Positions 7,686 to 46,995 of a stretch of 64,000 nucleotides of DNA are shown here, in pieces. Both the position numbers and the translations under genes were made by a program. Below the pieces are notes generated by a model, which searched no databases, was not told the DNA's origin, and was given only the letters and a program-made list of their open reading frames with translations. This DNA is from Candidatus Sulfomarinibacteraceae bacterium (GTDB taxonomy: Bacteria; Acidobacteriota; Thermoanaerobaculia; Thermoanaerobaculales; Sulfomarinibacteraceae), in assembly GCA_963796455.1 (NCBI GenBank), contig CAWCLO010000002.1:96001-160000 (forward strand), given 5' to 3'. Numbering within the stretch: position 1 is the first letter of the stretch; each line of letters begins with the position of its first letter.

Positions 7686-8122
7686 TCCGATCCCGATCCC
7701 GATCCCGAAAGGGAGAAAGGGGGAAAGGGAGAAAGGGGGAAAGGGAGAAGGGGAGAACCGTACCTCGCGTGGCAGAGGGGCAGAGGGGCAGAGGAGCAGA
7801 GGGGCAGAGTACCCGTCTCTATCACCATCGGTATCGCTATCGACGGCGAGATCGATCCTCGAACCGGCGGAGGGGCAGACGGGAAAGGGAGATAGGGAGA
7901 AAGGGAGAAACGCCCGGTACCGAATTCTCCTGTATGGGAGTGTCGTCTCCCGATGTCATCCTGAGCGGAGCCCCGCCTTGTCACGGCGTAGCCTGAAAGG
8001 CGCTTCGCTCAGGATGACATCTTGAAACTGGGCAGCCTGCTCATTGTCCCCGCCCCAAACGAGGCTGAATACTCGGTCTCCCCTTCTCCCCTTCTCCCTT
8101 TCTCCCTTTCTCCCTTTCCTCC
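7686..8122. repeat. Composite intergenic repeat with (GATCCC)n, (GGGAGAAA)n and (GGCAGAGG)n tracts and an inverted (TTTCTCCC)n arm
   Basis: Purine tracts at 7710-7757 and 7881-7910 are mirrored by a pyrimidine tract at 8077-8120. Confidence 0.75.
7952..8021. repeat. REP-like palindrome GATGTCATCCTGAGCG...CGCTCAGGATGACATC
   Basis: Perfect 16-bp inverted repeat. The same motif occurs at 37096 and at 40193/40305. Confidence 0.8.
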
Positions 8123-34539: not shown

Positions 34540-35440
34540 GAGAACCACCAAGACACCAAGGACGGACACCAGGAAAACCACAGAGGCACAGAGACACTGA
34601 GAGAGAACGCCCGCAGATCACGCAGAGAGACCCAGATTGATCATCTTTTTCGCTATCGTAGCTATCGCTATCGCTATCGCTATCGCTATCGACTGGAGAC
34701 TGACCGGATTTGCCCACAGATCTCCCAGATGACCCGGATGGCCGGCGTCGCAACCACAAAGACACAAAGACACAAAGCAGTCACGCCAAGAAAACCACAG
34801 AGGCACGGAGGCACAGAGAGAGAGAACGCCCGCAGATCACGCAGATAGACGCAGATCCATCGCAAAGAACGCAAAGAACGCAAAGTCGTAAAGACGCCAA
34901 GGCGAGTTGACCGGACTTGATGCGACGTTGCCATCAGTGTCGGCAGATCGACAGACGATCTCCGATCGCCCGTCGCCGGTGAGAAGCGGGGTGCCTCCAA
35001 TCGCCAGCGCTCGGAGTCACCCCGCGTCCCACCGCCCGGCACGCCCACGGCGTGCCGGTTCTGCCTTGGATCGGTGACGTCATCCCTTGATTGAAGAAAA
35101 GAGGAGGAAAGAGGCGAGACCTGCGCGGTCGCGCAGGCAGCTGGGTCAGGAAACCGTGACGAAAGCTCGTTTTCGGAACAGTTTCCTGACCCAGCTGTAC
35201 CTGGCCGCCCCTGGCGGCCAGAACCTCGCCGGACTGTGGATGGTCCGGGAAGTCCTCTGCGTCTCCGTGACTCTGCGCCTTTGCGTTAAGAACTCGAGAG
35301 GCTGACGCCGCGTGTTTTCAGCGGTCGGTGATGTTCCTGCAATCAGTCTGTCATCTGCGTCTATCTGCGTGATCTGTGGGCAAATTGCGCGGCTTTGCGT
35401 TTGCGATGTCTTCGCGCCTTTGCGTCTTTGCGTTGAAAAG
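34540..35440 (+). repeat. Composite structured element, copy 1 (MITE-like or ncRNA-like)
   Basis: Heptamer-array left arm, (GCTATC)n, 51-nt core at 34941-34991, several hairpins, and a reverse-complement right arm at about 35255-35435. Confidence 0.85.
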
Positions 35441-35559
35441 ATAGATCGGCGAGGAAGTGAACTCGATGACACAATTTGCCGGGAGCCTCCGTTCTCAAGT
35501 GATTCTGGGCCTTTGCGCTGCCCGTCTGTGCTTCTGTGGTTGTCGCGGACCCGGAGAAC

Positions 35560-35916
35560 TCAGAAGGGCTTGGTGATGGCCAACCAGGCGGCGAGTCCTC
35601 CGAGGATGGGCAGCCCGGTCCAGATCACCACCGCCCACTCGGGTTTGCGCCGCAACGGCACCACGGCCATCGCGAGAATCAACCAGAGACCGAACTTGGC
35701 CCACGCCCAGTTCGGAATTGCACCAAACATTTTCAGCCTCGCGAGCAGTCCGAATCCGGCAACCAGAACGATCACGAGGGCAACGCCGTGGGCGACCCCG
35801 GCGAGACGCCGAAGCTGGCTACTGGTCGTGCCCGCAGTTGCAGCCAGCGTGCCGAGGGACGTAAAGAGAAGAATAATCGCGAAGACGTGCAGCACCCGAT
35901 AAAACTCGTAGCTCAT
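35560..35916 (-). CDS. Small 4-TM membrane protein (SirB-like, tentative)
   Basis: MSYEFYRVLH...HGVALVIVLVAGFGLL...WAWAKFGLW...ITKPF. GGAGG RBS. Confidence 0.7.
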   Translation of the reverse strand: MSYEFYRVLHVFAIILLFTSLGTLAATAGTTSSQLRRLAGVAHGVALVIVLVAGFGLLARLKMFGAIPNWAWAKFGLWLILAMAVVPLRRKPEWAVVIWTGLPILGGLAAWLAITKPF

Positions 35917-35987
35917 CAAAGCCTCCATCCCGAACAACGTAATTCGAATGCCGGCATTCCCTGGTGTAGGATCCCGGTGGAGTGTAT

Positions 35988-36431
35988 ATGAACCGAGTCG
36001 CCTTCATACTTCTGTTAATCCTGGCCGGATGCAGTCATGTTCCGGTTGCCGAGGAGGCCCCAATGACCGGTGTCGTGTTTTTCAAGACCGAGCGACTCGA
36101 GGACCTCACCCGCTTCTATACCGATCGGGTCGGCACCGAGTTGTGGATGGATCAAGAAGACTGCCGCATCTTCCGCCACGGGCAGTTTCTCTTCGGTTTT
36201 TGCCAACGTGAGACGGCCGAGACCTGCGGTGTGCTGACCTTTGTCTACCGCGGCCGCGAAGGCGTCGACCGGATGTACGATTTGTTTCGTGATGAGGCCC
36301 TCGAAGAACCGCGAGACAACCCGCGCTATCCGATCTACAATTTTTTCGCGCGCGACCCTGAGGGCCGGTTGATCGAGTTTCAGTTCTTTTCCGGTGACGA
36401 TGTTGACTGGTCCTACGCTGATTCTCGATGA
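35988..36431 (+). CDS. VOC/glyoxalase family protein with lipoprotein-like N-terminus
   Basis: LAGC lipobox, FYTDRVG and FFARDPEGRLIEFQ. Confidence 0.8.
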   Translation: MNRVAFILLLILAGCSHVPVAEEAPMTGVVFFKTERLEDLTRFYTDRVGTELWMDQEDCRIFRHGQFLFGFCQRETAETCGVLTFVYRGREGVDRMYDLFRDEALEEPRDNPRYPIYNFFARDPEGRLIEFQFFSGDDVDWSYADSR

Positions 36432-36504
36432 CTATCAGGGCACTGCTAAACTCTGATCGTGGTCGGGCAGCCGGCGATTCAACGGCCCCTCCCGGGAGAC
36501 CAAC

Positions 36505-36951
36505 TTGGAACTGAGCGAAGTCTTTCAGAGCTGGGAAGAAGATCTGGTGGATGAGGCGGTGACCGAGTTGCGCCACGCCAGGCTGCAGCACTACATCGCC
36601 GATGGCGACTCGGTCACGCGTTTGAGGGTTGGAAGGTTCATCAACCGTGCCTTCGAGTGTTTTGCCATCCGGCGGGCCGATCCGATGATCGAGCACGCGG
36701 AACAAATCGCCAGGGAACGCTTTTCGGCGGGCTACGATCTCTTCGAGGTTCAGACCGCGATCAACGTGATCGAGGAAGCGCTGTGGAAACGCATCCTCTC
36801 ATCCGTCGAGCCGGAAGAGCTCGCCCATGCGCTCGGGATGGTCAACGCCATCTTCGGAATGTCCAAGGATGTGCTGGCGCGGACCTACGTCTCCTTGACC
36901 ACGAACCAGGAAACTCCGCGCAAAGAGATCGACGAGATCCTCGACGGTTAG
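36505..36951 (+). CDS. All-helical hypothetical protein (RsbRD N-terminal-like, tentative)
   Basis: GGGAG RBS plus TTG start, and an IARERFSAGYDLFEVQTAINVIEEALW pattern. Confidence 0.6.
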   Translation: MELSEVFQSWEEDLVDEAVTELRHARLQHYIADGDSVTRLRVGRFINRAFECFAIRRADPMIEHAEQIARERFSAGYDLFEVQTAINVIEEALWKRILSSVEPEELAHALGMVNAIFGMSKDVLARTYVSLTTNQETPRKEIDEILDG

Positions 36952-36964
36952 GTCGCGCACGCGA

Positions 36965-37525
36965 CCGATGCTGGATGCTGGATCTGGCACGGCGTGGCCT
37001 GTAGGGAGAAGCCGGAGAAACCGCAGATCACGCAGATAGACGCAGATGGCAGCCGGACTTCCTGGGAATCCCTGTGCATGCGAATCTCACCTCCCGATGT
37101 CATCCTGAGCGGAGCCCCTCAGGGGGCGCAGTCGAAGGATCTATGAGATGGAACGGAAGATTCTCAGGCCGTAGGCTTGCCGGCCGGTGGGAAGCGGGGT
37201 GACTCCGAGCGCTGGCGATTGAGGTCACCCCGCTTCTCACCGGCGACTGGCGATCGGAGATCGTCTGTCGATCTGCCGATACCGATGGCACCCTCGCACG
37301 AGTTCGGCGACCTACCCTTTGCGTTTCTGCGACTTTGCGTTCTTTGCGGTTCATCCTGTGTTTTTCTGTGTGCTCTGTCGGCCATCGTGTTTGCGACGAG
37401 GCCGTTTGCGATGGATCTGCGTCCATCTGCGTGATCTGCGGGCGTTCTCTCTCTGTGTCTCCGTGCCTCCGTGTTTGCGGCGTCCCTATCTGCGGCCATC
37501 TGTGTGATCTGCGGTTTCTCTGACC
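36965..37525 (-). repeat. Composite structured element, copy 2 (truncated, with a REP half-unit)
   Basis: Core at 37228-37278 (reverse complement). Inverted GAGAAACCGCAGATCAC arms at about 37015-37047 and 37489-37520. GATGTCATCCTGAGCG...GAAGGATCT at 37096-37142. Confidence 0.85.
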
Positions 37526-37537
37526 GACGCCGCACCC

Positions 37538-39319
37538 TTATAGATTGCGCACTTCCTCCGGGATGTCCTTCCAGCTCATGAACTGCAGATTGCAGAGTCG
37601 AAACTCGAGCCGGCCGTCCTCGCCGCGCACCAGAGCACCATCGGGCCCCATGGATGTCAGAAGATGCTCGGGACGAAGACGCAAGGCCTCGACTCCCAGT
37701 TCTTCGAGGCGGTCTTCCAGGCTTTGCACCACATGCATCGATTCGTCGACGGAGAGCAGCATACGCTCCACCGCCGCCTCCACATTCAAGGACCGGTAGA
37801 CCGAAGCCTCCGACTCCTCTTCGGTGTGGACCGGGCCGTCCCACTGGTCCCAGATGGTGACGTAATTGCGCCCGGCCTCGAGGATCGGCTCACCATCGGG
37901 AGACAGAATCTCGGCGTGGCTGTGGAAGCGGCTGGGGTCGAAGAGCGATTCTTTGAGTTGCGACCGATGACCGGTGCGATAGATGGCTCGGGGCAGGATG
38001 GTCCTGACTGAGTGGCGACGCAGCCAATAGGCCAGTGCCACTTCCTCGAAGGGGCTGTTGAAGCCGCGGGCCAGAAGTTGAAATCCTTCCGGACCGAGCG
38101 CCGCATGCTCCGGGTATTCACCTACGCGCGACACCTTCCATACGAATCGGACGTTGTCCTTGGTGGTCGTGAGATAGGTCTCGTGGTTTTCCCACAACCT
38201 GATCTGGGGTGTGGTTCGCCACCTCTCCGGCAGAAAATAGTCAAAAAGATCGGGGTCGCGACCGACAACCCACAACGCACCCCCGGTGCTTTCGCTGTGG
38301 CCGAAAAGATAGTCGATTCCAAAGATCCGCGACGCTCTGAGGTGTTTCGGAAGCCGTTTTAAGGCCCCGGTCCCGGTGACCGCTTCGATCTTGATCTGTT
38401 GCCGTTGGCGTTGGTATTTGTGGTGGCGCTTTTCGAGGATTTCCCGCTCGTATTCGGGTGTCCGCTCCATGAGCTCGAAATCGACCATTCCCCACTGAAT
38501 CTGATCGTCTCTTTTGACGAGGTTTTCGCGATCTTCGACTTCGACGATCACGTGCACCGGTTTCATGTCGAGAACGAGAAAACCCTTCGCGGCGGACGCA
38601 TCGATCGCGCGCTGGTTCAGGGCGAGCACCTGATCGTGAGTCAGCCAACCGTTTTCTTCGGCCAGACAGACATCGATGCCCTGCAGCCATTCGTAGACCA
38701 TGATGTAGTCGCGCATGATGTCGATCGCCATGCCCGGGTGTTTGGCCACCTTGTTGGCGATCCGCCACTGGAAACGACCGGTCTGGGATGGCTGCCACTT
38801 TTCGGGCGGCACATAGATGGCGAGCGGAATCTGGGTCTTGACCTCGAGACCTTTGGGGCCGCGCTTGGAGTGGCGCAGTTCGTCCACCAGGGCAAACTCT
38901 TCGAAGGGCCCGTTGAACTCGCAGGACAGGAGATCCCGGATCGCCTTGGTCTCGATGGGCACCTTCTGGCCGACCCGGCTGAATTTGACCACCACCACCA
39001 TGTATTCGCCGTCGATGGGTTTGGTCGGCGAAGCATAGACCGCGCCGGTTCCTTCGAGGATCTCGCGGTGTTTGCGGAACCACGCCAGATCGTACCAACT
39101 GTCGGGTTGGAGATGCTCGGAGCGGGCAAATCCATCGCCGGTCAGATAAAGATCGGCCCCGGACTCGGTCACTGTGTGGACGTAGTCGACCCCCAGGACG
39201 TTGACCAGCTGCGCATCAGGCGGCAGATTTCTGATTGCGACCGGGGCGCCGGAAGATCGAACTTCGGCGATCTCACGGGCGCGGGCGCGTGGATCGGTTG
39301 TGGATTGATCGGTGCTCAT
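37538..39319 (-). CDS. Hypothetical protein with two tandem protein-kinase-like repeats
   Basis: Internal duplication (KFSRVG/KVSRVG, FNGPFEE/FNSPFEE, PLAIY/PRAIY). Repeat 1 has LDMKPVH and VDFE. Confidence 0.75.
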   Translation of the reverse strand: MSTDQSTTDPRARAREIAEVRSSGAPVAIRNLPPDAQLVNVLGVDYVHTVTESGADLYLTGDGFARSEHLQPDSWYDLAWFRKHREILEGTGAVYASPTKPIDGEYMVVVVKFSRVGQKVPIETKAIRDLLSCEFNGPFEEFALVDELRHSKRGPKGLEVKTQIPLAIYVPPEKWQPSQTGRFQWRIANKVAKHPGMAIDIMRDYIMVYEWLQGIDVCLAEENGWLTHDQVLALNQRAIDASAAKGFLVLDMKPVHVIVEVEDRENLVKRDDQIQWGMVDFELMERTPEYEREILEKRHHKYQRQRQQIKIEAVTGTGALKRLPKHLRASRIFGIDYLFGHSESTGGALWVVGRDPDLFDYFLPERWRTTPQIRLWENHETYLTTTKDNVRFVWKVSRVGEYPEHAALGPEGFQLLARGFNSPFEEVALAYWLRRHSVRTILPRAIYRTGHRSQLKESLFDPSRFHSHAEILSPDGEPILEAGRNYVTIWDQWDGPVHTEEESEASVYRSLNVEAAVERMLLSVDESMHVVQSLEDRLEELGVEALRLRPEHLLTSMGPDGALVRGEDGRLEFRLCNLQFMSWKDIPEEVRNL

Positions 39320-39409
39320 GAGCCCTCTTTTCACCGTGGATTATCTCAGATCATCTGCGTCATCGACCCGGAATTCCACGGAGGTCACAGAAGTCGCCTG
39401 TTTGTTCGA

Positions 39410-40480
39410 AGCAGGATGCACGATGCTGGAAGATCCCGCTGTCGGAGAAACCGCAGATCACGCAGATGGACGCAGATTGATCATCGCTATCGCTATCGCT
39501 ATCGCTATCGACGGGAGACGGACCGGATATGCCCACTGATTACCCAGGTGGACCCAGCCAAGAACGCCGCAAACACGAAGACACAAAGACACGAAGGCGC
39601 CACACCAAGAAAACCACGGAGGCACGGAGACACAGAGAGGGAACACAGAGAGCTGGCGAAAAGGCTGACAGAACACACAGAAAGACACAGAAGCCATCGC
39701 AAAGGTACAACCGGAGTGCAGCCGGGACGGCTGCACCACCATGGTGGTGCACGCGTCTCGCGTGCACATGGTTGAACCGCAAAGTACGCAAGGAACGCAA
39801 AGTCGCAAAGACGCCAAGGCGCGGTTGCCGAGATTGTGGGAGGGTGCCGTCAGTGGCGGCAGATCGACAGACGATCTCCGATCGCCCGTCGCCGGTGAGA
39901 AGCGGGGCGCCTCCGAACGCCAGCGCTCGCAGTCACCCCGCATCCCACCGTCCGGCACGCCTCCGGCATGCCGGATCTGCCTCGCATTGGTGACCGCCTT
40001 CCTTGATTGAAGAAGAGGAGAGGAAGGAGGCGAGACCTGCGCGATCGCGCAGGCCGCTGGTTGACGGCCAGGACCTCGCCGGGCGAAGGAATCTTCCGGG
40101 AAGTTCTCTGCGTCTCCGCGCCTTTGTGCCTCTGCGTTAAGAACGCGACAGGCGGCAGCTGCGTGGGTTTTGAGCTGGCAGCTTCTTTTCAAGATGTCAT
40201 CCTGAGCGAAGCGCCTTTGGCGCGCAGTCGAAGGATCTGCGGCTCGACTCGAGGTCTTAGTCACCTGTCTCATAGATCCTTCGACTACGCCCCCTGCGGG
40301 GCTCCGCTCAGGATGACATCGGGAGGCGACATTCGCATCCACATTGATTCCTACGAAGTCAGGCTGTCATCTGCGTCTCTCTGCGTGATCTGCGGTTTCT
40401 CCGACTGAAACTCCCCGGTGCACGGAATCGGGTTGGGCCGGGCCGATCCAGCATCCACTATCCAGTATCGAGTATCGTGT
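39410..40480 (+). repeat. Composite structured element, copy 3
   Basis: 37-bp inverted repeats at 39441-39477 and 40369-40405 (2 mismatches). Core at 39857-39907. REP pair at 40193-40320. Confidence 0.88.
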
Positions 40481-40504
40481 GGTCGCAAGATGGGGAGGTG
40501 GGGC

Positions 40505-41953
40505 GTGTCCGAAACTCGACCAGGTGAACGAGAGGTCACGCTGGCCCAGGCCGCACTGCCGGTGGTCTTTCTGCTTGCCCTGATCGTTTACGGTCTGGTT
40601 CTTCGGCCCCGCCTCCAGGGCCTCGCGCCGTTCCCGCTCGAGATCGTTTTCATCCTCGCTGCTTCATTTGCCATCGGTCAACAACTGCTGATGGGCTACC
40701 GATGGACCCAGATTCAGGCGGCAATCGTTGCCAAGCTCGGCAAGGCGCTACCCGGGTTCTTCATCCTCTTTCTGGTGGGTCTCGTCATTTCGAGCTGGAT
40801 CATCTGCGGCACCATTCCCATGCTTGTCTCCATCGGGCTCGAGATCATCAACCCGACATTCCTGTACATCCTGGCCTTTCTGGTGCCGGTGGTCTTCTCC
40901 TTGCTCACCGGGACCTCCTGGGGTTCGGCGGGAACCATCGGGGTGGTGATCATCGGCGTCGCCACGGCCATGGAGGCGAACCTCGGCATCACAGCGGGCG
41001 CCGTCATCGGCGGAGCATTCTTCGGCGACAAGATGTCTCCGCTGTCGGACACCACCAACATGGCCGCTCTGGCCACCGAGGTGAATCTCTACGATCACAT
41101 CCGCTCCATGATGGTTACAACCATGCCGTCGGCGCTGGTGGCTTCGGCGGCTTTTTTGGTGCTCGGAATCGTTGATCCTCCCACCGTGACGGCCGCCGAT
41201 CTCGGTGCGCTGGCGCCGTTTCAGGAGACCTTGAAGGCGACCTTTCATTTCAATGTGACCCTGCTGATCCCGCCGTTCATCGTGCTCGCGGGCTCGCTTC
41301 GGAAGAAGCCGATCCTGCAAACGATGATGGTGTCCATCCTGACGGCATCCGGGCTCGCCCTGATTTTTCAAAAATTCACCCTGGACGATGTGATGCAGAG
41401 CCTGTACCGCGGATTCGATATGGGCATGGCATCGTGGGTTGCGGAGGTGCCACCGGAGGTTGCGGAGCTGGTCAACCGGGGTGGGCTCTACGCCTTGATC
41501 GACGCCATTGTCGTGGCCTTCACGGTCTTTTTTTTCGTCGGTGCGCTGGACAACATCGGCGCAATGCCGCTGATCGTGGGCAGGGTCTTCCGTTTTGCCC
41601 GGACGAGGACCAGCACCATTCTCGCGTCCCTCGCCGCAACCGGTTTCACCAATTCGCTGACATCGAATCAGTACGCCACCAGCTTCATCATCGGTGATGC
41701 GTTCAGGGGTGCCTACGATCGCCTCGGCATCGACCGCTCAGTATTGTCGCGGTCCATCGAGGATTACGGCACCATGCTCGAGAGTCTGGTGCCCTGGCAT
41801 CCAACCGCCGTCTTCATGGTGGGCACCCTGGGCGTTGCCTGGGCCGACTATTGGCACTGGCAGCTGCTGTCGCTCACAAACCTGGCGCTGGCGCCCGCCC
41901 TCGCCATCCTCGGCATCGGCTGTTTCTACTCCGATGAGAAGCCTGCCAACTGA
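40505..41953 (+). CDS. nhaC: NhaC family antiporter, second paralog
   Basis: GTSWGSAGTIG, GAFFGDKMSPLSDTTNMA and LSRSIEDYGT. GGAGG plus GTG start. Confidence 0.88.
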   Translation: MSETRPGEREVTLAQAALPVVFLLALIVYGLVLRPRLQGLAPFPLEIVFILAASFAIGQQLLMGYRWTQIQAAIVAKLGKALPGFFILFLVGLVISSWIICGTIPMLVSIGLEIINPTFLYILAFLVPVVFSLLTGTSWGSAGTIGVVIIGVATAMEANLGITAGAVIGGAFFGDKMSPLSDTTNMAALATEVNLYDHIRSMMVTTMPSALVASAAFLVLGIVDPPTVTAADLGALAPFQETLKATFHFNVTLLIPPFIVLAGSLRKKPILQTMMVSILTASGLALIFQKFTLDDVMQSLYRGFDMGMASWVAEVPPEVAELVNRGGLYALIDAIVVAFTVFFFVGALDNIGAMPLIVGRVFRFARTRTSTILASLAATGFTNSLTSNQYATSFIIGDAFRGAYDRLGIDRSVLSRSIEDYGTMLESLVPWHPTAVFMVGTLGVAWADYWHWQLLSLTNLALAPALAILGIGCFYSDEKPAN

Positions 41954-41975
41954 TACCCAGCGTGATCGTTCGGAC

Positions 41976-42137
41976 AACCACGGAGGCACGAAGGCACAGA
42001 GAACCACACAGAGTTTTCTGAGACTTCGCGATGGCTCGTTTCATCACGACCGGCCACGGTGGACCATTCAATTCGGTGGTGGCTATTGTATGAATTCTTC
42101 TCTGTGCGGTCCTCTGTGCCTCTGTGTCTCTGTGGTT
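41976..42137. repeat. Intergenic palindrome with CACRGAG heptamer arms
   Basis: AACCACGGAGGCACGAAGGCACAGAG...CTCTGTGCCTCTGTGTCTCTGTGGTT between convergent genes. Confidence 0.75.
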
Positions 42138-44055
42138 AGTTTTCTTTGACGATCGGCAGCACGACCTTCGACGGGTGGTCCGGAGAGAGGTGAACGGTAT
42201 TGGTCGCCACCACACCCTCGGTCTCGTCGTAGTTCTTACCGCCGGTATTGAGGTTGCGGGTGAACCGCGGGAAGTTGCTCGACGAGACCTCGACCCGGAT
42301 CCGGTGTCCCTTGTCGAAGTAGTTGCTGGTCGAGAGGGGGCTGAGCTTGATTTCGTAGACCTCGCCCTCCTCCATGAAAACCTGTTTGTCGAAGCCCTCA
42401 CGATAGCGGGCCCTGAAGATGGTCTCGTCGAGATTCCACGCCTGACCTTCGGTGTCCACATCCACCAGTTTGACGGTGAAGTCGGTGTCCTTGGCGTCGG
42501 AGGAGACATAGAGGGTGACCTCGATCGGACCGCTGACCTCGACCCCCTCCTCGAGCACGTCGGTGCTGTAGACCAGAATATCGTGGCGCGCTTCCATCCG
42601 CCGTTGGTCGAAGGACCCTGCGTTGATGGCGTTGCCGGTGCAACAGACGTTACCGCCGTAGGACAGGACCGGGTTCATGGGATCATAGGTGAAGGTGTCG
42701 CTCTTCTTCGCAGAGGGTTTGTCGGTGCTGAGCAGGCCGTCGCCATAGAGGCTGTTGGCCCCTTTGTCGCTGTCGAGATAGTAGGTCACCATCTCGGTCC
42801 CGGCGGGCGGCCAGCTGGTTGACGAGTTCCACTCGTTGGAGCCCATCGTGTAGTACTGGACCCTGGGCAGTGTTTCGAGAATGCCGTTTTCTTCACCCTT
42901 GAGCCAGTAGTCGAACCAGTCGTAAGTCAGGTCTTCGTACTCGAGCCGCGCATCGCCCATGTTGCGTTCGCCGACAATGGTCTCTTCCTTCGAGCGGCGA
43001 AATCCACAATGCCCGACCGGGGCGATCAGCGCGTACTGGTTGGCTGCCACCTCGGGGTCCTTTGCGTTCTCCCTGACGTGGTTGAAGAGCGCCAGATTGG
43101 GGCTGATCGAGACGTCGTACCACGACATCCACCAGAAGCTCGGAACTCCGAAATCTTCGTCGTCGTGGTAGAGACCGCCCTTGTACCAGGCCGGGTCGTT
43201 GGGGGTGCGCTGGATCATCCGACCGCCGGTGGCGTTGGCGGCGGGATCGGCAAAGATACCTTCGGGCCCTTCGACCGAGCGCATGAGGTCTTCGACCGGC
43301 AGGTGCCAGAAGGCCTCGTCCCAGTCGACTTCCGGGTACTCGGGCGCGAGATCGAAGTACTTGGAGAGGCGGATGATGTCCTCGCGGTCGATGTCCGGCG
43401 AAAATGTGGGTCGCTGGGTGTTTTGGACCCCATAGAGCCAGGAAAAGAAAAGCATCTGCTCGGCGCCGCCGCGGTACCAGTTGCCCTGCTCGTAAAAGTC
43501 ACCGACGCGGCCGATGCCGGCGCCAAAACCCTGCGGCACCATGGCCGCATGGGCGGGATGATCGAGGGCGGCCAGACCCATCTGCCACTCGGCCGTTGAC
43601 GAGCACCCGAGAGTTCCCACCTTGCCGTTGGACCAGCCCTGGTGGACGATCCAGGTCAAGGCGTCGTAGCCGTCGGTCTTCGGCGGACCGAGGAGATCCC
43701 ACTCACCCTCGCTGAAATACCGGCCGCGTTCGTTCTGGACGACCATGGCATAACCGCGTTTCACTGCAGCGAGAGCCATCCGCAGCCCCCGGGTCTGCGG
43801 TTCGCCATCGCGGTAGAGGTTGAAATTGTAGGGTGTGCGAACAAAGATGGTCGGCACCGGGCCATCCGCGTTTTTGGGTCGGATGATGTCGGTGGCGAGG
43901 GCGACGCCGTCGCGCATTGGCATCATGACCTTCGGCTCGTAGATGGCGATTTTTTCGAGCGTCTTCATCACGTCCTCGCTCCCCTGGGCGGAGAGCGCGC
44001 CGGGCATCATCGCGGTCGCGACGCAGCACAGAACCAAAACGGTGAATTTTTTCAT
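42136..44055 (-). CDS. CocE/NonD family hydrolase (S15-like), secreted
   Basis: [36 protein letters not shown] and [16 protein letters not shown]. Confidence 0.9.
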
Positions 44056-44096
44056 AACGTTTTTCTCCTCATTGGTGCATGCCATTCGCAGGAGAC

Positions 44097-46139
44097 TCAT
44101 GACGGATCCACCGCGGCCGGGCGAGGTGGATGGACATAGGCTCTCGGTGCGATATAGGTCGCCAACGTGACCGGCTCACCCCTGAGCCAGTGGCTGAACC
44201 ACTCCAATGTCAGTTGGTATCGAAGGGTCACGTGGTCATCACCCCGAATACCGTGCTGCTCGTCCGGGAAGTTGACATAGACCGAGGGCACACCGACCTT
44301 CTGCAGCGCGGTGAAGAGCTGGACCCCCTGTTCCGGTCGAACCCGCCAGTCGTTGTTGCCATGCAGGACCATGGTCGGCGTTGTGAAATTCTCGGCCGCC
44401 CACAGCGGTGAATTGGAAAGGTGGGTTTCCTTGCTCTGCCACGGCATGCCGCCCATCTCCTTTTCGGAGAAGAACTGCTCATCGGTGGTCCCGAAGAAGG
44501 AGACCATGTTGGAAAGACCCGCGCTCGAGACCGCGCCCTTGAATCGGTCGGTATGGCCGATGATCCAGTTCGTCATATAGCCGCCGTAGGAGCCACCGGT
44601 GACCCCGAGCGCCTCAGGATCGGCCACGCCCATCTCCACCACATGATCGACAAAGGCCATGAGATCGGCCATCGGTTTGGTGTGCCAGTCCTGGTGGATG
44701 GCATCGGCAAAAGCCTGGCCGTAACCATCAGACCCGCGCGGGTTGGTGTAGAGAACGGCAAAACCGTTGGCGGCCATCAGCTGGTTGGAGAATCGGAACG
44801 ACGGGCTCGACATGCCGTGGGGGCCGCCGTGGATCGACAGGATCATCGGCACCGGGGTCCCTGCTTCGAACCCGATCGGTCGCATGAGCCAACCCTGCAC
44901 CCGGTCGCCGTCGGTTGTGTCGATCCAGATCTCTTCGGAGGCACTCACCGGACGACCGGCCCACCACGCTGACGCTTCGTCGGTGAGCTTTTTCACGGTA
45001 CCGAAGGCGACTGTCCAAAGCTCGTTCGGGATCACGTCGGTGGAGCCCTGGAGCACGAAGTGCTCGTTGTCCAGGACATTGAAACGGGAGATCACCGGTT
45101 CATTGGCCACCGTGTGGAAGACGTCGGGTTGTTGGAGCCCCACCCATTGGAGATCTCGGGCGCCATGGCTCGAGGCGGTGAAAAAGATCCGGTCGCTGCT
45201 CGGTCCCCAGACAATTGAACGGACCGTGCGGTCGAGGCTCTCGGTCAGCACCCGCTCGTCGGAACCATCCCGGGCCGCGGTGTGGATCTTGTAGTTTTCG
45301 CTCTCGTAGTTGTACTCATAACTCGCGCGCCAGGCGATGCGTTTCCCGTCAGGACTGAAAGCCGGGCTGTGATCCGGGCCCGGGTTTTTGGTGAACTGCC
45401 GGGTAGTACCGGTTGCCACATCGACGATGAAGACATTGGTGTCGATGGTGTTCCACCACTCGGGCGAACGGTTGGAGACGTAGGCGATCTCCTTCGAGTC
45501 GGGGCTCCAGACCATGGAGTGGTCGCCCTCGTCGGCGCATTCACCGTCGGTAAGCTGTTTCGCCTCGCCGCCGTCGGCGGGAATCACGAAGACCCTCTTA
45601 CGGGTGCCGTCGTCCCAGCCGCGACCGAGGTGGTAGAAACGCGGATGGACCGCGTAGCGCACGTCGCCGAATGCTTCGCGTTGCGCCTCACTGTGGAGCT
45701 CACCGACCGACGACGTGAAGGCGATCGTTTTCCCGTCCGGCGAATACAGCGGGGCCGAGGCACCGCTTTCAACACCCGTGAGGCGGCGGGCCTCACCGCC
45801 GTCGATGCGGATCGCGTAGATCTGGCTCTTCTCGTCCTCTCCCCGTTTGGCCGAGAAGATGACCGTCTTACCGTCCGGGCTCCAGCTGTAGCCCTTCTCG
45901 ATCCCGGGGCTTGATGTCAGCCGCCTCGCCTCGCCTCCGGTAAAGGGTCGGAGATAGATGTCCCCCACGTCTTTCTCGTGAACCGGGCAATAACGGGTCA
46001 CCGAATAAGCGACCCACAGACCATCGGGTGAGACCTGTGGCGCACCCACCGAAACCTGCTTCAGGTGATCGGCAGGAACGAGCGGCCCCAGATCGTTGGA
46101 TTGAGCGCGAGGAACAAAAAACAGAACGACGAAAACCAA
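44097..46139 (-). CDS. S9 family peptidase (acylaminoacyl peptidase-like); start uncertain
   Basis: WSPDG repeats, [29 protein letters not shown] and FPDEQH. Confidence 0.9.
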
Positions 46140-46369
46140 TACACGGATGACAGATGTATCACGACGAGACCCCCTTCCAACTCCGTGGCCATCGTAGACC
46201 TCTCCACCGTTTCTGCCAAATTGACGGTTCGATCAAATGAGAAAGGGGGGTGCGGGGCGATCGATTCGGCTCGATAGCCTCGATGCGGGAGTCCAGGCGC
46301 CCCACCCACGAAGGCGGGCGTCATGGGTGGTTCTGTATCGCCGAGGGTCTGATCCAGAGCCTCGAGGTC

Positions 46370-46995
46370 GATCCTGGATGCTCGATGCTGGATCGACCGG
46401 CCCAACTCGATACCGGGTGCCGAAAGAACTTCGGTCGGAGAAACCGCAGATTACGCAGATGGACGCAGATAACTTCCCGGTAGGAGCTTCCGCCCGGCGA
46501 GGCCTGCGCGACCGCGCAGGCCTCGCCTCTTTCCTCCCCTCTCCTTCAATCGAGGAAGGGTGTCACTCATGCAAGGCAGAACCGGTGTGCCGGAGGCGCA
46601 CCGGTCGGTGGGGAGCGGGGTGACTCCGAGCGCTGGCGATCGGGAGGCGCCCCGCTTCTCACCGGCGACGGGCGATCGGAGATCGTCTGTCGATCTGCCG
46701 ACACTGACGGCACCCTCGCACAAGTTCGGCGACCTACCCTTTGCGTCTCTGCGACTTTGCGTTCTTTGCGGTTCATTCTGTGTGTTCTATGGGCAACCGT
46801 GTGTGCGACGAGTTCGTGTGCGATGGATCTGCGTCCATCTGCGCGATCTGCGGGCGTTCTCTCTCTCTGTGTCTCCGTGCCTCCGTGGTTGCGACGTTCT
46901 TGGCTGTATCCGGGTCCATTTGGGTTATCTGTGGGCAATCGTTTTTGCGACGAGAGCATTTGCGATGAATCTGCGTGATCTGTGGGCAAATTGAA
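46370..46995 (-). repeat. Composite structured element, copy 4
   Basis: Core at 46650-46700 (reverse complement). GTCGGAGAAACCGCAGATTACGCAGATGGACGCAGAT at 46434-46470. Confidence 0.88.

Follow-up and report, generated by a model that had tools for sequence, protein, structure and literature searches.

Non-coding elements with inverted modular arms and a variable interior are familiar from MITEs (miniature inverted-repeat transposable elements) and from the Foldback elements of Drosophila. Among bacteria, the closest described systems are the doublets of REPs (repetitive extragenic palindromic sequences) known as REPINs with the REP-associated tyrosine transposases, or RAYTs (Bertels and Rainey 2011, PMC3116915), the bacterial interspersed mosaic elements (BIMEs), GTAG/CGTC repeats, REPtrons and TIRtrons (Di Nocera 2013, PMC3733652), and the Ssn nucleases with their NTS/SRM repeats (Chenal 2025, PMC11893778), each cited here for the portions of the article on which we draw. 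Here we describe a gene-less repeat element in a 64,000-nucleotide stretch (the window) of the genome of a Candidatus Sulfomarinibacteraceae bacterium (assembly GCA_963796455.1, contig CAWCLO010000002.1), where four copies of the element lie within 12.5 kb. The source genome (G000, in which the window is C2:96001-160000) comprises 5.0 Mb and is 90.5% complete.

The element is a mosaic. It is built around a predicted four-way junction, X1, and an inverted homologous junction, X2, and its short repeats, or arms, match those that flank genes of the GxxExxY (PF13366) nuclease family. We read it as gene-less palindromic-repeat DNA, in which inward-facing arms of the GxxExxY type enclose two inverted junction units predicted to fold as single-stranded DNA, and which is likely cut in trans by small nucleases and repaired from other copies. 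We give this reading a probability of roughly 0.62.

Twin four-way junctions and their predicted fold

An initial annotation, made from the window alone, had noted the four copies at the places where we find them and a 51-nt core that they share with one mismatch. The 51-mer is indeed present in all four, but the conserved unit is larger, namely a 124-nt junction that contains the 51-mer, plus the inverted second junction. The predicted fold of X1 consists of a closing stem and three hairpins that meet in a junction without unpaired bases. In an alignment of 32 X1 sequences, 94% of the cells are paired and 28 of the 51 pairs show changes on both sides; the corresponding values for X2 (36 sequences) are 95% and 32 of 49. 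None of 500 shuffles reached the X1 or X2 level, and slid registers were 33-51% paired, a control biased in favour of X1 because its structure was derived from the tested sequences. The covariance model R1, built on the minus strand of X1, scores X2 at 83 bits on the plus strand and at 49 bits on the minus strand, indicating that X1 and X2 are homologs placed back to back. They are separated by a linker of 38-69 nt. Both units are present in 22 of the 34 copies in the source genome and at 86 of 98 distinct X2 loci in metagenomes (109 found), where X1 lies at most 90 nt away; at the remaining loci X1 is deleted (7) or cut off (5).

The two units differ in the strand on which they fold better: this is the minus strand for X1 (40 of 41 cases) and the plus strand for X2 (17 of 21). 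A tandem GA lies below a CTNG-capped tip in both, on the preferred strand only. This motif was counted in 77 of 100 X1 sequences read on the minus strand against 2 read on the plus strand, and in 42 X2 sequences on the plus strand against 3 on the minus strand. The strand preference and the confinement of the tandem GA to the preferred strand indicate that the fold is selected on a single strand. Hairpin loops of 2-3 nt dominate, and GNRA and UNCG loops occur about 5 times per 100 at any hairpin. A dominance of short loops with few GNRA or UNCG tetraloops leans towards DNA, and we infer that the fold matters as DNA rather than as RNA.

Alternatively, the twin junction could be a functional structured RNA of 3' untranslated or intercistronic regions, acting in stability, processing or protein binding, with the arms as passengers; the inverted doublet would then ensure that transcription of either strand yields one junction in the right orientation. 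The initial annotation had offered a structured-RNA family as one of its two explanations. The strong covariation of both units and the strand-specific features agree with it, while the rarity of GNRA and UNCG loops and the loss of whole helices in many copies do not. Nor does any Rfam family come near its threshold: when the region and 10 related loci were scanned, the best scores were 27-28 bits, against thresholds of 65-112. Together with the neighbourhood evidence given below, we consider the RNA explanation unlikely, though most plausible in the imu operon.

No gene lies within the X1-X2 unit at 84 X1 loci and 98 distinct X2 loci, and neither the stretch separating X1 from X2 nor the long arm showed an open reading frame, so that no autonomous form was found. 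A codon-model gene caller placed all 34 copies of the source genome between genes, with a few very low-scoring calls overlapping arms, and gave no gene in any of the four window copies, in agreement with the first impression that they contain no convincing reading frame. In two loci, the X1-X2 linker holds a 300-nt non-coding insert with short inverted ends of its own (L056:465-780, with a linker of 372 nt, and L050).

Arms, cassettes and candidate nuclease genes

The short repeats of the mosaic are arms with a period of 8-9 nt. The source genome has three GxxExxY genes. Around each of them stands an inverted pair of arms of a single type (A, B or C), and these arms match ones in the window; one of the three genes is frameshifted, possibly through an assembly error, while the intact two lie at C1:453957-454322 and C1:750122-750499. 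Within the genus, an inverted arm pair accompanies 25 of 30 GxxExxY entries (23 of 27 distinct loci), and across the phylum an inverted repeat was found at 22 of 29 GxxExxY loci, compared with 1 of 298 control genes. The arms at 84 distinct X1 loci are directed inward, apart from a single wrong-way match, and arms are present on both sides in 55 of the 64 X1 loci with full flanks. Thus, the X copies look like gene-less derivatives of the GxxExxY inverted-arm cassette: they have its arm classes and its inward orientation, and they have no nuclease gene between the arms.

The GxxExxY protein (PF13366/TIGR04256) belongs to a PD-(D/E)XK family whose function is described as unknown in the consulted part of the literature (PMC3424549). 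It retains D65, E75 and K77, the acidic and lysine residues of the PD-(D/E)XK type, and its structure model has a pLDDT of 94.8. We infer that GxxExxY proteins act on the arms.

At one chromosomal junction, B-armed or D-armed GxxExxY genes of different subfamilies are found depending on the species, as if cassettes were swapped at a fixed site (L114, L115, L116, L117, L118, L120, L123, L125, L126, L127 and L128). The source genome also carries about 65 loci of another cassette, encoding a four-helix-bundle protein (PF05635/TIGR02436) between inverted CAGCG-type arms (for example, L364, C2:166000-166700); none is in the window. For this cassette there are 70 Pfam matches, 65 full-length DNA matches and 53 intact frames of 124 codons (124-aa products), with a pN/pS of 0.18, and it is mosaic too.

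Other modules of the mosaic lead to other enzymes. A back-to-back pair of GTGG-tagged REP hairpins (module R) occurs in most copies of the source genome and in one of the four window copies, and is not part of the central unit. Its left REP is the one found on both sides of a RAYT gene (G000:C4:209842-210456; NF047646 above cut-off). A further hairpin module, F, appears to be linked to GIY-YIG genes: of 15 congener loci with a short GIY-YIG gene, 3 have F-related halves on either side of it as judged by pattern, and 6 as judged by eye. The only GIY-YIG protein of the source genome is UvrC. Small hairpins, and not F halves, accompany a second group of short GIY-YIG genes, which follow them and are mostly located directly after a tRNA-like gene (L197, L198, L199, L200, L204, L214 and L215). 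Literal identity with the SRM repeats was considered and rejected, as neither X nor the F modules of the window match the SRM pattern. The candidate genes named in the initial annotation were well chosen: the arms are those of GxxExxY genes, one module is a RAYT-linked REP and one appears to be linked to GIY-YIG. The X1-X2 unit itself encloses no gene, and a reverse transcriptase is unsupported, with no RVT_1 match in the source genome.

Copies, sites and gene conversion

BLAST and profile searches identified 34 copies across the source genome, rather than the four first seen. They are clustered: 16 of the 34 have a neighbour within 10 kb, whereas 5000 random placements gave a mean of 4.1 and a maximum of 15. 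By DNA search, 22 of 24 genomes of the same genus contain the element, a few of them with weak matches. An exact X1 pattern recovered 48 loci from the GTDB collection, most of them labelled Ca. Sulfomarinibacteraceae or Thermoanaerobaculales and some carrying names given by other submitters, and had 0 matches in viral contigs. R1 matches 9 of 151 genomes of the class, all 9 in one family, and 3 of 151 genomes of the phylum, of which the two outside matches score 31-33 bits and one of these lies within a gene. In a distant family of the phylum, a junction-like intergenic match scores 31 bits (L395:1501-1620). Among the genomes searched, no wider range was found.

The features of the window are collected in Table 1. 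The four copies share their module order in part. Copy 1 has an intact X2, copy 3 one with an internal deletion, copy 4 a single remaining hairpin and copy 2 none, and the REP pair is in copy 3 alone. Copies 1, 2 and 4 start just 3' of a co-oriented gene, in line with the three first noted. The 37-bp inverted repeat reported for copy 3 corresponds to its outer A arms, which are 95% complementary. The host gaps that hold the element measure 586-1448 bp, the order of the arms varies, and there are no fixed ends and no fixed length. Two other features lie in the window: a gene for a 593-aa protein without a Pfam match, 70-75% conserved in congeners (37538-39319, minus strand), and a fifth mosaic without X, in which J, H and E repeats surround a whole F junction (7689-8117).

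Table 1. Copies of the element, their junction units and associated modules (window coordinates)
Feature	Position	Strand	Remarks
Copy 1, complete mosaic	34540..35545	+	Left arms D2,B,A,E,A2,D,B,A,C; X1; linker; X2; right arms B,A,A2,C inverted
51-mer, copy 1	34941-34991	+	Exact
X1, copy 1	34942..35065	- (preferred)	z -7.5 on minus vs -5.0 on plus; R1 110.5 bits
Linker, copy 1	35066..35112	.	47 nt; a pyrimidine-rich stretch followed by a purine-rich one; both junctions turn their 5' ends towards it
X2, copy 1	35113..35230	+	Inverted X1 homolog; R1 83.4 bits on +, 48.7 on -; covariation
Copy 2	36965..37525	-	Arms A,B,A,C; X1 with eroded closing stem; half F junction; A and G arms
Half F junction, copy 2	37095..37146	+	GIY-YIG-linked hairpin module
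X1, copy 2	37155..37277	+ (preferred)	R1 87.7 bits
51-mer, copy 2	37228-37278	-	One mismatch
Copy 3, longest mosaic	39410..40480	+	Between divergent genes; outer A arms 39441-39477 and 40369-40405
REP hairpin pair (module R), copy 3	39712..39768	.	GTGG-tagged, back to back; scores 31 and 29
51-mer, copy 3	39857-39907	+	Exact
X1, copy 3	39858..39981	-	R1 115.3 bits
X2, copy 3, long arm deleted	40029..40080	+	Internal deletion
Whole F module, copy 3	40193..40321	+	Itself a four-way junction; DNA fold z -7.3
Empty inverted B-arm pair	41973..42140	.	Between convergent genes; shell of a GxxExxY-type cassette without gene or junction
Copy 4	46370..46995	-	Arms A2,A,A2,B,A,C; X1; X2 remnant; A and G arms
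X2 remnant, copy 4	46496..46527	-	Single perfect hairpin = closing stem and first arm
X1, copy 4	46575..46699	+ (preferred)	R1 108.6 bits
51-mer, copy 4	46650-46700	-	Exact

The proximity of the four copies and their structured, strand-specific units might point to a local assembly duplication or to an RNA-based (retro) element. An assembly artefact is refuted by the divergence of the copies, which differ by 5-20%, and by their occurrence in independently assembled relatives; moreover, contigs from public sequencing runs cross the edges of copies 2 and 4. For a retro element, the lack of any RVT_1 match in a genome of this completeness and the lack of adenine bias in the variants are unfavourable. 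A retro element is hardly credible.

We then investigated the history of the sites. The gap that holds copy 2 is 586 bp in the source genome and at most about 15 bp in two congeners (G018 and G004), in which hardly any sequence separates the two convergent genes, so that this site records a gain or a loss of the element. At the copy 1 site, behind the ABC permease gene of the window, two of 11 congeners have a lone X2, three have REPs, and the others have other sequence or nothing. The lone X2-type junctions sit inside C or D arms (L096:1353-1484 and L098:1311-1442). For copies 3 and 4, congener regions without X1 were found, which also lack the matching second flank gene. Among the loci examined, none is a filled orthologous site of any of the four window copies. 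No target duplication was seen at the ends, in comparisons with empty sites that are about 75% diverged, and low-depth contigs of public runs gave no clean empty-site joint for any copy.

Elsewhere in the source genome, 10 of the 34 sites also hold the element at the corresponding junction of other genomes or contigs. The orientation agrees in 23 of 23 such pairs, which are not independent of one another. At these shared sites the orthologs are 0.54-0.73 identical, mostly no closer than they are to unrelated copies of the source genome, while the paralogs of the source genome are mostly about 0.9 identical, with two divergent copies as exceptions. A classical MITE, mobilized by a DDE transposase acting on terminal inverted repeats, would account for inverted arms at both ends and for the orthologous empty site of copy 2. 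The variable ends, length and arm order, the absence of a visible duplication, the old shared sites and the derivation of the arms from GxxExxY cassettes argue against it, as does the divergence of the copies: the closest two of the 22 whole cores differ by 4.7%. We regard this explanation as very improbable. Of the mobile-element interpretation first proposed, the non-autonomous, REPIN-like form with an enzyme encoded elsewhere fits the anatomy, whereas a young, uniform element that makes target-site duplications is unsupported, as many sites are old and shared and the copies are mosaic.

The two junctions in the imuA-imuB-dnaE2 operon were compared across 8 genomes. The median identity is 0.83 within a genome, against 0.69 between genomes both for the same site and for different sites. 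In a tree of these junctions, close relatives cluster by site, while the copies of G000 and those of G006 cluster by genome (support for the G000 pair, 100/99). The two imu copies of G008 are 97% alike, compared with 76-89% in its relatives. The imu junctions thus combine vertical inheritance with gene conversion. Among the copies of the source genome, site incompatibility climbs with distance from 0.44 to 0.68, and a neighbour test gave 0.489 against 0.649 (0 of 2000 permutations), a recombination signal that can be inflated by recurrent mutation and by paired sites. Such mosaicism among the copies agrees with gene conversion.

With respect to neighbouring genes, 16 of the 34 copies lie between convergent genes, against 585 of 3849 gene junctions overall, and at least one gene reads into 30 of the 34. 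The latter would suit the RNA explanation, but the flanking genes are mostly unrelated (transporters, kinases and hydrolases), and the copy 1 site is variable among congeners, with lone X2, REP pairs or nothing. The imu operon of the source genome harbours three copies, which belong to the 10 sites shared with other genomes. Among the best 30 imuB loci of the 61 genomes with a match, a junction lies beside imuB in 14 of 19 loci of the genus and in 2 of 11 others, and wherever X1 was found its preferred strand is on the imu mRNA. This speaks for an RNA role; however, unrelated repeats are also drawn to this operon in other bacteria, and REPs are reported to favour dnaE2 and repair genes, according to the consulted part of PMC3733652. 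At two loci, the genes imuA, imuB and dnaE2 contain heptamer repeats that are read in frame, in addition to the junction elements between these genes (L408, G000:C4:783000-794500, and L066). The stretch from imuA to the element includes a short conserved open frame of about 30 codons with a terminal Cys-Val (L408:7175-7275, minus strand; also L087 and L231).

The junction pair might instead be a domesticated single-stranded DNA signal for DNA repair or the SOS response, kept by the host near repair genes. Six of the 34 sites of the source genome touch imuA, imuB, dnaE2, dinB, radA/fpg-like or SRAP genes, outside this genome ImuB is found next to the element more often than any other neighbour (15 of 181 calls), and the fold resembles a Holliday junction. 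However, this gene set was picked after seeing the data, with no count of repair genes across the genome; a single operon accounts for three of the six sites, and 28 of the 34 sites have other neighbours. Five of the 19 imu loci of the genus have no junction; three of these are cut by contig ends, and two have both flanks in view. A repair signal thus seems quite improbable.

A proposed mechanism and the known systems

Our preferred reading, a palindromic-repeat mosaic cut in trans and repaired from sister copies, can be put as a sequence of steps. The mosaic would fold while single-stranded, and small repeat-specific nucleases encoded elsewhere would nick the folded form. The cut copy would then be repaired from sister copies, the nuclease thereby starting the copying. 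New sites would be founded rarely and mostly nearby, and old sites would be overwritten often. A further possibility, which we put forward tentatively, is that GxxExxY joins RAYT and Ssn as a third family of small nucleases specific for repeats, that the twin junction is a Holliday-junction mimic that recruits cutting, with homing-like conversion over older repeats, and that the SOS mutagenesis operon is the oldest reservoir.

Several observations weigh against the preferred reading. No enzyme gene linked to the X junctions themselves was found at GxxExxY, Y1 or GIY-YIG loci: the arms of 54 GxxExxY loci contain no X junction (one match lies 1.3 kb off), 28 Y1 loci gave a single weak match (26 bits), and 15 short GIY-YIG loci gave weak matches only, of at most 23.5 bits. 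A GxxExxY match is absent from 7 of 25 genomes of the genus, including one with many X copies (G017). Foldseek with the GxxExxY model returned nothing at E<=0.001, with Cas4, lambda exonuclease and Hjc as weak top entries. Arms pair no better within one copy than between copies (p=0.67), which indicates that a long fold-back is not maintained copy by copy. Nearby copies are not significantly more alike (0.875 vs 0.849, p=0.09), and the possible inflation of the recombination test also belongs here. Finally, the strand-specific tandem GA, the CTNG motifs and the G-U(T) pairs suit RNA equally, and retention of the junction beside imuB could mean a host function.

No published description of GxxExxY arms or of the X1-X2 pair was found in a literature search that covered mostly openly available articles. 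The element appears to be an undescribed gene-less bacterial repeat. It would provide candidate DNA substrates, in several pairs of arm and enzyme, for a widespread nuclease family without a known function, as the Ssn work, in the part cited, did for GIY-YIG. A direct assay thus becomes possible, and new enzymes specific for single-stranded DNA could result. The element also offers a clean case of concerted evolution among dispersed bacterial repeats whose orthologous sites are fixed, and so touches on the questions of how REP-like families are maintained and why error-prone polymerase genes attract them. Should the junction pair act as RNA instead, it would be a new 300-nt motif.

Compared with MITEs and Foldback elements, the element has no fixed termini, no visible duplication and no apparent link to a transposase, and in one copy the arms are not matched to each other. 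It resembles REPINs in several ways. As these are presented in the cited part of Bertels and Rainey, both are extragenic inverted doublets with a less conserved spacer and compensatory changes, and both would rely on an enzyme in trans, which for our element is a proposal; one module here is a true RAYT-linked REP, and doublets outnumber singlets, as in REPINs. However, the X units are four-way junctions of about 120 nt rather than GTAG hairpins of 20-40 nt, no RAYT gene is flanked by X, and the X sites are old and converted. With the BIMEs, REPtrons and TIRtrons, as far as the cited sections of Di Nocera describe them, the element shares an arrangement in mosaic clusters at the ends of genes, the occurrence of its repeats on either side of a small enzyme gene as well, and a preference for dnaE2 and repair genes. 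It differs from them in that its repeats are mostly arms of PD-(D/E)XK (GxxExxY) genes, of which those sections make no mention, and in that the arms are placed strictly inward around a central junction pair. In the Ssn system, on the evidence of the cited part of Chenal, a small nuclease gene is likewise flanked by its own strand-specific hairpin repeats, which are also dispersed without the gene, and F with its GIY-YIG genes looks similar. However, the SRM pattern given there matches 0 of 100 X sequences and none of the F modules of the window, and GxxExxY has another nuclease fold. Thus, the element works like a BIME/REPIN or NTS-Ssn system, yet it fails their defining sequence tests. It is probably best regarded as a BIME/REPIN-like mosaic of single-stranded DNA that is rarely spread and often converted.

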